A stretch of DNA of 64,000 bases from an uncultured Gammaproteobacteria bacterium (GTDB taxonomy: Bacteria > Pseudomonadota > Gammaproteobacteria > Legionellales > Legionellaceae), in the NCBI GenBank assembly GCA_963760845.1, contig CAVXEK010000018.1, positions 701 through 64,700 of the forward strand, given 5' to 3'. The translations under genes and the position numbers were made by a program. Every line of letters starts with the position of its first letter. Within the stretch, counting starts at the first letter, position 1. The notes beneath the pieces are model-generated. The model was not told the DNA's origin. It was given only the letters and a program-made list of their open reading frames with translations, and did no database searches. Shown in pieces: positions 41,683-43,118 of the stretch.

Positions 41683-43118
41683 CTGGACTTTGGACAAACT
41701 CCGATCTGAACGGGCCCGAGCCCGTGGGCGAGCCCGGGCCCGCCCGAGCTCCGAACAGTCATAAGTTACAATCAAATCCAGATTATTTTAGCAATATTCC
41801 ACCATCACAACGTGCAATCTGGTCTATTTATTGACAATATTATCTTGATTATGCAATGATTTTTTCATCAAGAGCTGTGTTTTTCCACTTTTTAACGATA
41901 GGATGACGCATGCGTTTTACCTGAATGTCCCCCGATTGTCGTCCAAGGGCTTTTTTTCGTGGTTTGGGTGGTTGAGAATGTTCAATATCAAAGCGATGGC
42001 GATAGCTGGTAAAATTATCATACAACGATAATTCCATGCGTCTTTTACCTGCTGCAACCAAAGGGGTCGCTTGAATAACAATTCACCGGATTCTTTATAG
42101 ACCTGAACGCGCAACAAACGCAAGGGATAATCAGATAGTTTGTTGCCCTTTTTGCCTATCTTGATGACTTCGTTCCAGCAGTCTATTTTTATGATTTGAA
42201 TTTTTCCTTTGGCGCTCGTTTGTCAAAACGCAACGGATTCGTCTGGAGCCCGCCATGTTGCTGGATTGTTTAACTGATGAATATCACCATAGACTTTAGG
42301 GCGACCACGTTTTTTTGTATCTGTTGTCTCATCCGGGGCATAGGGGTAAAAAAATCTTCTGTTATTCCTGGTACGACTGATGTGCACTTGATTCACATTG
42401 CTTTTTGCAATGCCCAAACATAACGGGTTGTTGTAGGCAGTATCACCAAGTGAGACAGACAGTTGGTTTGAGAAAGCACCTTGCGATTTGATGCAAGCAG
42501 CAATTTGCTCCATCCCGACCAGCTCACTATGTTGAGCGGTATCAACACGCGTGCATGCCAAAGGGATCAACCAAGGCGTGTTTGTGCCTGTTTTTTCAGG
42601 CAAGTAAGCCGCAATGCTGTATTTGTGACCCAGCGTTATCGGTTTGTTGCCACAGACGGTATTGGGCGCGTAAACATAACTCCTGTCCTCTAACCTCGGT
42701 GAAAAAACACGAGGCTGTGGCGTGCAGTCTACTGTAAATAAATGAAATCCGTGCTGTCGATAAAATCACTTCAGCCTTCCCTCGTGGCAGAGCTTATTTA
42801 ACCGACCAGCTTCAACGAGCTGGAACCTCAATTTCATTGAATATTGCTGAAGGCTCAGGTGAGTTTTCCACCAATGAAAAAAGCAGATTTTATCGCATGG
42901 CAAAACGTTCGGCCACAGAAACTGCGGCGATCCTGGAGGTATCCAAACGTGCAAATATTATACATGAAGAACAGTATCGCTTAGCCAGAGATTTACCTAT
43001 TCGCATTGTTATGATGTTGACTAAAATGGCGCAAAAAGTAGATTAGCCGGAGCTCGGGCGGGCCCGGGCTCGCCCACGGGCTCGGGCCCGTTCAGATCGG
43101 AGTTTGTCCAAAGTCCAG
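41683..43118. mobile_element. Largest copy (B) of the element: IS701/DDE_5-like transposase remnant on minus strand plus four-helix-bundle remnant on plus strand
   Basis: About 71-bp TIRs; TAATGTA duplicated; transposase motifs FTVDCTPQPR, GDTAY, RFDIEH, PPKPR. Confidence 0.85.
42780..43046 (+). pseudogene. Four-helix-bundle (IVS/bAvd-like) protein, 5' truncated
   Basis: YLTDQLQRAGTSISLNIAEGSGEFSTNEKSRFYRMAKRSATETAAILE. Confidence 0.85.

Follow-up and report, generated by a model that had tools for sequence, protein, structure and literature searches.

A non-autonomous insertion sequence copy in a Legionellaceae genome and the probable portability of its four-helix-bundle gene and GC-rich arms

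The window (the whole stretch of 64,000 nucleotides that was analysed) contains, at 41683-43118, remnants of a transposase gene and of a four-helix-bundle (4HB) protein gene enclosed by long inverted ends. This arrangement raises the question of which kind of element the segment descends from, and of whether the 4HB protein is an integral partner of the transposase or a passenger. The features of the segment are listed below.

41683-43118: whole element of 1436 bp; its inverted ends of 71 bp match perfectly and enclose a broken DDE transposase and a 4HB gene truncated at the 5' end
41676..41682, no strand: left target-site duplication TAATGTA, read from the sequence; the same 7 bp stand at 43119-43125
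41683..41699, plus strand: outer terminus CTGGACTTTGGACAAAC, a family-wide transposase end, nTGGACTTT[G/T]GACAAA
41711..41753, plus strand: left GC-rich arm, five in-frame hexamers at 41711-41740 followed by a degenerate tail
41849..42804, minus strand: transposase remnant of NF041680/DDE_5 type, with frame breaks and two TGA stops
42738..43046, plus strand: 4HB remnant (PF05635/TIGR02436, S23p/Avd-type), residues ~16-117, stop codon TAG at 43044-43046
43048..43118, minus strand: right inverted end of 71 bp, made up of arm, spacer and outer terminus; perfect complement of 41683-41753
43119..43125, no strand: right target-site duplication TAATGTA, read from the sequence

The window copy and its relatives in the genome

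An earlier note on this DNA had described the segment as a leftward DDE_5-like transposase remnant with a rightward 4HB remnant, and the matches to NF041680, DDE_5 and PF05635/TIGR02436 agreed with this description. The leftward frames of the window matched Pfam DDE_5 with 30.5 bits, and NCBIfam NF041680 matched 42226-42765 with 111 bits. In the whole-genome search, profile positions 65-306 were located at window positions 42043-42804, with two TGA codons, and the C-terminal piece of the transposase corresponded to the ORF 41849-42061; about 64 N-terminal residues and residues ~307-389 are missing. The 4HB remnant lacks the start codon and the promoter and is 92% identical to residues 16-117 of an intact 117-aa copy. 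The segment has terminal inverted repeats, a target duplication, no functional transposase and many near-identical copies, as do MITEs and other non-autonomous IS derivatives. It derives by internal deletion from an insertion sequence of ~2.2 kb and is non-autonomous.

The 17-mer CTGGACTTTGGACAAAC was matched 10 times in the window, compared with 0.02 matches expected from shuffled sequences, and formed inverted pairs at 17204/17904, 41683/43118, 53913/54438 and 55668/56168. Together with a left end at 62328, these pairs bore out the earlier claim of related copies with shared ~71-bp terminal inverted repeats. The other copies in the window are the following.

17204..17904, minus strand: 701-bp derivative with the tips of both genes only; duplication TACGAA
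26695..26715, no strand: 21-bp remnant, two outer termini joined almost head to head
53913..54438, plus strand: 526-bp MITE-like derivative; duplication TGTAATAA
55668..56168, minus strand: 501-bp derivative with the arm shortened at one end; duplication TATGATA
62328..62875, plus strand: rearranged copy, left end and transposase tip up to 62633, then unrelated DNA

A nested hairpin MITE of ~177 bp lies inside the 701-bp copy, and a degenerate right-end remnant was recognised by eye near 62853-62875 in the rearranged copy. The short copies encode NETIKQPTQVQNDFERII, which is missing from the 1436-bp copy because the internal deletion of the latter fuses ...FDIEH to QPPKPRK. Therefore, the two kinds of copies go back to a larger parent that was deleted independently in each case, which agrees with the earlier note.

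Genome-wide, 254 ends and 114 paired copies with sizes of 70-2549 bp were counted, and the ~114 internally deleted copies made up 2.45% of this Legionellaceae genome. The copies in the window are a small sample of this very large family. Perfect target duplications of 6-8 bp, with a mode of 7, flanked 64 of the 114 copies; the 7-bp duplications are AT-rich (T...A). The 701-bp size class comprised 34 copies with a median identity of 99.3%, and the 481-530-bp class comprised 40 copies with a median identity of 99.0%. Size classes that are each ~99% identical internally were amplified recently, like MITEs, and the spread as a MITE suggested by the earlier note was thus found to proceed through non-autonomous deletion derivatives.

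No intact transposase was found among the ~114 genomic copies. The search of the genome for an intact master copy also gave none, the largest copies being of 1586 bp; the assembly is 92% complete, and a copy in a gap is possible. The 2549-bp copy was rejected as a full-length element since it results from the nested insertion of another element. Because the genome contains only deletion derivatives, each class of which was recently amplified, the transposase must have acted in trans. Intact 4HB genes were present in transposase-less derivatives, namely, in eight copies of this genome and in L109 and L214.

An intact two-gene parent and its transposase

An exact 17-mer scan covered 596 Gb of genome contigs; approximately 70 single matches were expected by chance, and single matches were ignored. 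Intact parents of ~2.16 kb were found in metagenomes, in the diverged lineages L097-L104, L105/L106 and L111. They contain a leftward gene for a 480-aa transposase, a 125-bp divergent spacer and a rightward gene for a 117-aa 4HB protein, with both parts of the long inverted ends present and with nTGGACTTTGGACAAA as the outer termini. In L097-L104, L106 and L111, an intact non-transposition gene lies with the transposase inside the ends, as in a transporter IS. The two-gene element deduced earlier from the remnants therefore exists with exactly this layout; copies with both ORFs intact were found in metagenomes and none in this genome. The flanks of the metagenome elements L097-L105 do not match as target duplications, and the L097-L104 contigs without matching duplications are probably chimeric repeat assemblies; these flanks were left out of account.

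Two of the candidates examined were rejected. The closest intact transposase in a relative (G024/L006) was not the parent, as neither inverted ends nor a 4HB gene was found with it. The multi-match genomes of Anaerolineae, Thermoflexus and Coleofasciculus contained different repeat families, which share the terminus but lack a 4HB gene.

The existence of full-length transposase relatives without the 4HB gene or the arms could suggest a one-off chimera, in which two unrelated elements were nested by chance in this genome, a possibility that the earlier note had named as a refutation of its proposal. However, the two-gene layout and the arms are intact in several lineages and conserved at dS >1 in both genes, with similar values for the 4HB gene and the transposase (1.05 and 1.21 for L097 vs L105/L106). 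The chimera is thereby refuted, and its probability is practically nil.

The transposase matched NF041680 best, with 373.9 bits for L097 (profile positions 1-439), 407.6 bits for G024 and 111-200 bits for the window fragments, and did not reach the equivalog cut-off of 440 bits. The IS701 models remained far under their cut-offs (NF049999, 25-71 bits vs 170; NF033540, 16-30 bits vs 150), and the Pfam DDE_5 threshold was barely passed (30 bits vs 27). In the 23-sequence alignment A1, D103, D199, E354, Y347, R350 and K361 were invariant; these columns presumably represent the D-D-E triad and the Y(2)R(3)E(6)K motif of IS4/IS701-type DDE enzymes. The target duplication of IS701 elements, described in ISfinder as 4-5 bp, differs from the 6-8 bp (mode 7) found here. 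Of the earlier label "IS701/DDE_5-like", the DDE_5 part was retained and the IS701 part was not; judging by the profile scores, the name IS701 is only approximate, and the enzyme is distantly IS701-like.

The alignment over the full length of NF041680, the DDE_5 match, the D-D-E and YREK residues and the termini common with annotated relatives from cyanobacteria and Chloroflexota are shared with the IS701/NF041680 group, whereas the scores (374 vs 440 bits for NF041680 and 16-71 vs 150-170 bits for the IS701 models) and the mostly 7-bp duplication set the element apart. This transposase family has the outermost 15-17 bp of the ends in common across phyla, and the same terminal 15-mer delimits NF041680-type elements in Chloroflexota, Cyanobacteriota, Legionellaceae, Alphaproteobacteria and Bacteroidota. 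RefSeq assigns no IS-family name to these transposases, so an insertion-sequence family without an ISfinder-style RefSeq name and with termini unusually conserved across phyla is documented here.

The 4HB gene and the elements that carry it

The S23p/23S-rRNA-IVS protein family is widespread, its structures have been solved since 2006, and we know of no function for it. HMM scores and fold place the 4HB protein in this family. The intact copy L001:1161-1511 scored 92.3 bits with PF05635 (threshold 33.8) and 86.7 bits with TIGR02436 (threshold 24), and the monomer model (pLDDT 93) had four helices, with a TM score of 0.89 to 2GSC and matches to 2RLD and to Avd of diversity-generating retroelements (DGRs). 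The PDB entries of 2GSC, 2RLD and Avd contain five chains each; pentamery of the family is taken from these entries and from PMC4990558. By analogy, the 4HB protein of the element may form a homopentameric ring. The dN/dS ratios were 0.03-0.12 (~0.05) for the 4HB gene and 0.09-0.13 for the transposase, the values being approximate since dS was >1 and saturated. These ratios indicate strong purifying selection on the 4HB gene, which is more constrained than the transposase.

In the transposase tree, the 4HB carriers fell into one inner clade, and the basal and sister lineages were single-gene elements, which indicates that the 4HB gene was gained once, within a Legionellaceae clade. The nested relative L112 has a GNAT acetyltransferase gene as cargo in the same slot, a 7-bp duplication and one retained GC-rich arm; L212 and L213 have unknown ORFs in this slot. 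The single-gene elements L203, L206, L209 and L211 have neither a 4HB gene nor arms.

The same 4HB protein (89% aa identity), with the same arms and topology, was found in an IS982 element. A 465-bp block shared with this element is 83.7% identical, and the left arm of the IS982 element is shorter. More distant relatives of the module were found inside IS630, IS66, IS4 and IS5 elements, and ~36 relatives were transposase-less cassettes of 420-760 bp without insertion-sequence ends. In the 4HB tree, the IS982-borne genes were nested inside the NF041680-borne clade (99/97), and the other 4HB-transposase unions were independent. Judging from these comparisons, the module of 4HB gene and arms recurs in at least five transposon families besides this one, which is a new observation. 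With respect to the choice left by the earlier note between an integral partner and a passenger, a passenger fits better given the single-gene sister and basal lineages, the other cargo in the slot and the module in the IS982 element. A cofactor specific to the NF041680 transposase was down-weighted. It is probable that a portable 4HB/arm module rides insertion sequences rather than serving this transposase as a dedicated cofactor.

Insertion sequences with passenger genes (tIS) and mobile insertion cassettes (MIC) are existing concepts. The element resembles tIS, MIC231-type cassettes and MITEs in that a DDE transposase and an extra gene lie inside the ends and end-only derivatives were mobilised in trans and amplified. 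As in tIS and MIC, related elements have different cargo in the same slot. Unlike in those systems, the cargo here brings its own repeat arms, with one arm just inward of each terminus; this unit of cargo and arms is found in six transposase families, and constraint is stronger on the cargo than on the transposase. The literature search found neither these termini nor an insertion sequence whose passenger gene is of the four-helix-bundle or S23 type; the elements of a Coxiella MITE paper (PMC5896051) are unrelated to this one.

Avd of DGRs (PDB 4DWL, 8UB7), a pentameric protein binding both nucleic acid and a polymerase, shares the four-helix-bundle fold (TM ~0.78), but the sequence identity is ~10%, and the partner enzyme here would be a DDE transposase or none. 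A reverse transcriptase and template/variable repeats were absent from the element, which contains only the transposase and 4HB genes; the resemblance to Avd is confined to the fold.

ORF-bearing 23S rRNA intervening sequences (IVSs) of Coxiella burnetii and Leptospira, with an S23p ORF (PMC4990558), belong to the same family, PF05635, and likewise have the gene between long complementary arms; short tandem repeats occur in both kinds of arms, heptamers in Coxiella and hexamers here. The end-arm-4HB-arm-end derivatives L109, L214 and L192 have the layout of an IVS. The likeness is one of layout and protein family. Unlike an IVS, the unit is not in rRNA; it is enclosed by transposon ends and flanked by target duplications. 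The 23S gene of this genome (2902 nt for 2925 model positions) has no insertion. The origin of IVSs has been debated since the early 1990s between a transposition remnant and a mobile element with a mobility-aiding ORF (PMC4990558). Both ideas are given concrete material here: intact elements in which the gene and arms lie inside working-looking DDE transposon ends with target duplications, a gene-plus-arms unit that appears to move between unrelated transposon families, and a gene under strong constraint. Its presence in several transposon families offers a testable route for the spread of the puzzling 4HB family.

The GC-rich arms and their possible role

The division of each end into an outer part and a GC-rich inner part, as described earlier, was confirmed, the outer terminus belonging to the transposase family as a whole and the inner part consisting of five tandem hexamers, present only together with the 4HB gene. 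In the left arm, the hexamers at 41711-41740 are, in order, CGGGCC CGAGCC CGTGGG CGAGCC CGGGCC. The autocorrelation of the arm peaked at lag 6, and five repeat units were the mode (20 of 39 arms). In at least four transposon families (NF041680, IS982, IS5 and IS630), each end has an arm just inward of the terminus. Arms were kept by all MITE copies of the genome, and BLAST hits revealed no dispersed arm-only copies there.

It may be supposed that the 4HB protein is a true accessory transposition factor, the pentamer of which binds the five-hexamer arms and pairs or marks the ends, so that any DDE transposase gaining the module gains efficiency or regulation. The location of the arms in these four families, their strict association with the 4HB gene, the agreement of the modal five repeats with the five chains in solved family structures, the stronger purifying selection on the 4HB gene than on the transposase, and the retention of arms in all MITE copies, where the eight intact genomic 4HB genes could act in trans, are consistent with such a role. 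However, close relatives transpose without the 4HB gene or arms (L112, whose 7-bp duplication is clean, and L203, L206, L209 and L211, which are single-gene elements), the ~36 cassettes without a transposase or IS ends mean that the module persists without any transposase, and half of one arm is deleted in one window copy. An accessory factor is accordingly considered unlikely.

Folding of the arms was strand-dependent. The left arm formed a 17-bp hairpin on the minus (outward-reading) strand only (-43.8 kcal/mol, z -3.7; opposite strand, -29 kcal/mol, z -0.6), and the right arm folded on the plus strand, which is outward and 4HB-sense (-42.9 kcal/mol, z -3.6). Across lineages, the outward fold was stabler than the inward one in all but 2 of 18 distinct arms, with G-U/G-C exchanges between arm copies. 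The right arm of the 1436-bp copy begins 1 nt past the 4HB stop codon.

These results are compatible with arms that are RNA elements and a 4HB gene that is unrelated cargo. The 3' stem-loop would end or stabilise both transcripts and insulate neighbours, and read-through ends would pair into an RNase III-cleavable stem as in rRNA IVSs; the Coxiella IVS is excised by RNase III at such a stem (PMC4990558). At either end, the hairpin is confined to the outward strand, which is mRNA-sense (z about -3.6 vs -0.6). Nevertheless, the terminator scan called no canonical intrinsic terminators at the arms and no U-tract follows the stem; the same strand is the transferred DNA strand, so a single-stranded DNA role fits equally. 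Only the GGGCCC-containing arms of this clade form a self-folding hairpin; CGTGCC-type arms of relatives can pair only arm to arm, and arms of more distant relatives do not fold on themselves. The constant co-travel of arms and 4HB gene is left unexplained by this reading. RNA-element arms are possible, though less likely than not.

According to the preferred explanation, the portable module consists of the 4HB gene, a ~58-bp upstream block and the five-hexamer arms. It entered the NF041680-type lineage once, at a position where nested relatives have different cargo, and later passed to the IS982 element; in distant relatives, it is transposase-less or enclosed with IS630, IS66, IS4 or IS5 transposases. 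Cutting and joining would be performed by the transposase alone, the module being a hitch-hiker with insertion sequences as its vehicles. The arms fold on the strand that reads outward; this strand corresponds to the 3' end of the mRNA of each gene and is also the one transferred. No arm remnant was seen in the 125-bp spacer between the genes, where simple cassette insertion would predict one; the second arm, at the transposase end, probably arose when the inverted ends were extended by template switching (quasipalindrome correction).

From sequence, we infer a function for the protein and arms of the module, in which the protein would act on its own arms. More specifically, and tentatively, an S23p-type pentamer might recognise its arms by binding each repeat with one subunit, the arms having five hexamers here and five heptamers in relatives. 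Protein and arms together would then be a portable and self-sufficient module, with an end-pairing or insulating function, that could lodge just within any inverted repeat already present; this is rather unlikely as it stands. If true, it would apply to the ends of six or more insertion-sequence families and, by analogy, to helices of 23S rRNA, and pentamer-arm recognition would explain the origin of ORF-bearing rRNA IVSs and the spread of the gene family.

Two observations run counter to a mere hitch-hiker. The tighter constraint on the 4HB gene and its intactness in transposase-less derivatives would fit a role in transposition or element maintenance, and the presence of arms at both ends in at least four families is not predicted by simple cargo capture.

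A decayed copy of a two-gene insertion sequence

The 17-mer CTGGACTTTGGACAAAC was present 10 times in the window, compared with 0.02 occurrences expected by chance. Its matches comprised four pairs in inverted orientation, a left end lacking a partner, and a 21-bp remnant. The features were as follows.

41683-43118: element copy of 1436 bp with perfect 71-bp inverted ends
Directly outside both ends of this copy: 7-bp direct target duplication, TAATGTA
17373-17549: palindromic hairpin element of ~177 bp with ends CCTAGAAAAAGCAGTTGAAGCC, nested inside the copy at 17204-17904
26695-26715: minimal derivative, a 21-bp joint of two outer termini

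The leftward frames of the 1436-bp copy matched Pfam DDE_5 and NCBIfam NF041680 and were broken by stop codons and an internal deletion fusing ...FDIEH to QPPKPRK. The rightward frame corresponded to residues ~16-117 of a four-helix-bundle (4HB) protein (PF05635/TIGR02436), and the start codon was absent. In the short window copies both genes were reduced to their 3' tips, including NETIKQPTQVQNDFERII, which was missing from the 1436-bp copy. The earlier note's description of these copies was right at each point that could be checked, and the two-gene parent that it had predicted was found in several lineages (loci L097, L099, L105 and L111).

The closest 4HB relatives (84-91% identity) lay on metagenome contigs of 2.0-3.6 kb, where a 480-aa DDE_5 protein read leftward, followed by a 125-bp spacer and a 117-aa 4HB gene reading rightward. 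The ends on these contigs had two parts, as in the window: TGGACTTTGGACAAA, a ~12-nt spacer and a GC-rich run (the arm). In L097 and L099 the ends lay 2160 bp apart, and in L105 they were separated by 2300 bp. The layout of L097 was also found in L111, from a gammaproteobacterial MAG, and decayed forms of the two-gene element were found in a Legionellaceae and a Legionellales MAG (L120 and L169). Transposase fragments of the window genome were ~80% identical to the proteins of the intact elements. The 1436-bp window element is a decayed copy of this two-gene insertion sequence and is non-autonomous. The relatives were mostly MAG or metagenome contigs, for which host assignments may be wrong (e.g., L226, binned as Chlamydiales), and target duplications are unreliable where contigs are collapsed repeats.

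In the whole assembly (3.4 Mb, 18 contigs, 42% G+C, 92% complete), 254 ends were counted. The paired copies numbered 114, ranged from 70 to 2549 bp and together made up 83 kb (2.45% of the genome). Perfect 6-8-bp target duplications flanked 64 of the 114 paired copies, a length of 7 bp being the commonest (43 copies); A+T made up 80% of the duplicated sites, which showed a preference for T at the first position and for A at the seventh. An intact transposase was found in no copy of the family in this 92% complete assembly, and the full 117-aa 4HB gene was retained in eight copies. Deletion classes of ~520, 700, 828, 939, 1099, 1120 and 1586 bp were distinguished, and since identity within each class was ~99%, several distinct non-autonomous derivatives each moved recently. 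The ~700-bp composite of a copy and the nested ~177-bp hairpin was amplified as a unit (34 copies, 99.3% median identity); therefore, the nesting is older than the burst. Seven copies were 70-76-bp palindromes of the two ends alone (e.g., G000:C1:158454-158523 in the window's genome), to which each end contributed terminus, spacer and half-arm. Such minimal derivatives presumably came from deletion across the self-complementary arms. By definition, the element qualifies both as a MITE family and as a passenger-carrying insertion sequence.

Several neighbouring or inserted sequences were also observed. The 2549-bp copy (L005, G000:C4:18068-20616) was a 939-bp-class derivative split by another element, whose 466-aa ORF had, by eye, an IS66-like N-terminal coiled coil. 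An ORF fragment containing ...YIHYNPVKHGYVERAYDWDSS... at 43126-43287 (-) abutted the right end of the 41683-43118 element and by eye resembled the C-terminus of a REP-associated tyrosine transposase (RAYT / IS200-like). A ~45-bp repeat (translating as ...GTSLALLCPPY...) occurs in two inverted copies, at ~41485-41527 and ~43310-43360, which may, again by eye, be the REPs of this fragment. The 1118-aa ORF adjoining the element at 43764-47120 (-) was mostly coiled-coil and resembled the large secreted effectors typical of Legionellaceae.

Transposase family, termini and cargo slot

The intact transposase aligned over the full NF041680 profile with 374 bits, below the curated cut-off of 440, and IS701 models matched it weakly, under their curated thresholds. 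It thus fell short of the curated thresholds for both families; RefSeq names the relatives 'NF041680 family putative transposase'. In a 23-member alignment, D103, D199 and E354 were invariant and the pattern Y347-R350-E354-K361 was present; we read the former as the putative DDE triad and the latter as a putative YREK motif.

Single-gene members of the transposase family were 1.57-2.1 kb long. Elements of the family were bounded by TGGACTTT[G/T]GACAAA in Chloroflexota, Cyanobacteriota, Legionellaceae, Alphaproteobacteria, Bacteroidota and others, which indicates that the outer 15-17 bp in the window are the family transposase ends. Unlike these, the inner part of the ends is lineage-specific. 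No description of the termini was found in the literature. Dozens of MITE-like repeats with an identical 17-mer terminus start were seen in Anaerolineae, Thermoflexus and Coleofasciculus genomes (L036, L042, L058 and others); their interiors differed from that of the Legionellaceae element, and the Thermoflexus interior included a G-rich hairpin.

In the transposase tree, for which only ~10 contexts were sampled, the 4HB carriers L097, L106 and L111 fell within an inner clade, to whose members the transposase fragments of the window genome were ~80% identical. The sister clade (G024/L119, L113-L115, P0007) consisted of single-gene elements, as did the basal branches of the larger clade (P0079, P0028, P0062, P0020). 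The slot of the 4HB gene lies inside the ends, on the upstream side of the transposase and divergent from it, and other genes were found there in inner-clade members.

L112, element at 1581-4042: 254-aa GNAT acetyltransferase in the slot, Legionellaceae MAG, clean 7-bp duplication TATAATA
L212, element at 2-2372, and L213, element at 339-2552: 186-aa and 200-aa ORFs, respectively, in the slot, no family match

These passengers could be host-interaction genes moved by the insertion sequence. GC-rich arms were restricted to 4HB carriers, and L112 retained one arm, on the transposase side. Considering the tree placement, the arm distribution and the alternative cargo, it could be concluded that the 4HB gene and its arms were acquired a single time and are swappable.

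A portable module of gene, upstream block and arms

Searching with the 4HB alignment yielded 80 loci. Ten copies of a ~1.5-kb element were found in one gammaproteobacterial MAG, with a 4HB protein 89% identical to that of the window genome and a 297-aa transposase of the IS982 family (225 bits, cut-off 130). Its arms were of the window-family kind and its outer termini were different. Both elements shared one topology: IS terminus, arm, leftward transposase, spacer, rightward 4HB gene, second arm, IS terminus. The IS982 and NF041680-type elements had a common block of 465 bp at 83.7% identity, beginning 58 bp before the 4HB start and running through to the arm end, and a further 33-bp match over the far arm. 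Distant 4HB relatives (56-69% identity) in Chlamydiota, Verrucomicrobiota, Coxiellaceae, Legionella and Myxococcota were bracketed by CGTGCC-type hexamer arms, and ~36 of them were 420-760-bp cassettes without a transposase. Individual loci were as follows.

L247: IS630 transposase enclosed by 4HB arms
L248, L249: IS66 transposases, likewise enclosed
L261: IS4 transposase, likewise enclosed
L255/L283 family: IS5 transposase, likewise enclosed, ~20 copies in one MAG
L282, 862-1740 (-): IS110-family transposase nested in the IS5-type 4HB element, Chlamydiae MAG with ~20 element copies
L192: Legionellaceae relative, 4HB 66% identical, 506-bp cassette lacking transposon ends, arms perfect over 43 bp
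L226, 283-2438: Chlamydiales-binned contig, 4HB 88% identical to the Legionellaceae type

In L226, the 4HB gene was in tandem, not divergent, with an NF041680-type transposase 37% identical to that of the window's family; either cross-phylum transfer or a binning error accounts for this contig. A transposon-specific inverted sequence lay outside the arms in the IS5, IS982 and IS630 cases, where both flanks were readable. In the 4HB tree, the IS982-borne genes were nested in the NF041680-borne clade (support 99/97), and each other transposase union was sister to cassette-only rows. These positions require at least five independent unions.

The element thus has two parts with different histories, a DDE transposon with family-wide ends and a portable module in which the 4HB gene is combined with the block upstream of it and the arms. 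The transposase would perform the chemistry and mobilise derivatives in trans, and the module would be a hitch-hiker using insertion sequences as vehicles. The position of the arms just inside both ends appears to be the sole feature left unexplained by simple cargo capture. Quasipalindrome correction is an established mutational mechanism, and we propose that template switching of this kind, extending the inverted ends inward, could have placed an arm at both ends. Alternatively, the module may have been selected at both ends, with the protein pairing or insulating them. In the literature, no report was found of an S23p or four-helix-bundle gene as the passenger of an insertion sequence.

The four-helix-bundle protein and its arms

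Between 4HB-holding lineages, dN/dS was 0.03-0.12 for the 4HB gene (dS 0.9-4) and 0.09-0.13 for the transposase (dS 1.0-1.8), values that are approximate because dS was saturated. The 4HB gene is a working gene. The dS of the two genes was alike between L097 and L105/L106 (1.05 and 1.21), consistent with joint inheritance. The AlphaFold model (pLDDT 93) was a four-helix bundle that superposed on XCC0516 (2GSC, TM 0.89) and BT_0352 (2RLD) and, less closely, on the DGR protein Avd (4DWL, 8UB7; TM ~0.78, ~10% identity). A DGR was rejected since reverse transcriptase was absent, and a 23S rRNA intervening sequence (IVS) was rejected since the 23S gene of the genome was uninterrupted. In a review of Coxiella IVS elements, their origin and function are called unclear and two hypotheses are cited, a transposition remnant and a mobile ORF (PMC4990558).

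The probable target of the 4HB protein is its own arms. Autocorrelation was strongest at lag 6 in every arm; the window arm reads CGGGCC CGAGCC CGTGGG CGAGCC CGGGCC. In the window's clade, only the outward-reading strand was self-folding (-43 kcal/mol, z ~-3.6, vs -30 kcal/mol, z -0.6), and this strand was the more stable in 16 of 18 distinct arms folded across lineages. G-U/G-C exchanges were seen between arm copies. No U-tract followed the arm stem, and a terminator scan of the arms made no call. Because the outward strand serves both as sense strand at the 3' end of the adjacent gene and as transferred strand at the transposon end, a role as RNA is indistinguishable here from one as single-stranded DNA. 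By in-frame count, 20 of 39 arms had exactly five hexamers and one had more. The match of five repeats per arm to the five-subunit rings of solved family members is at most suggestive.
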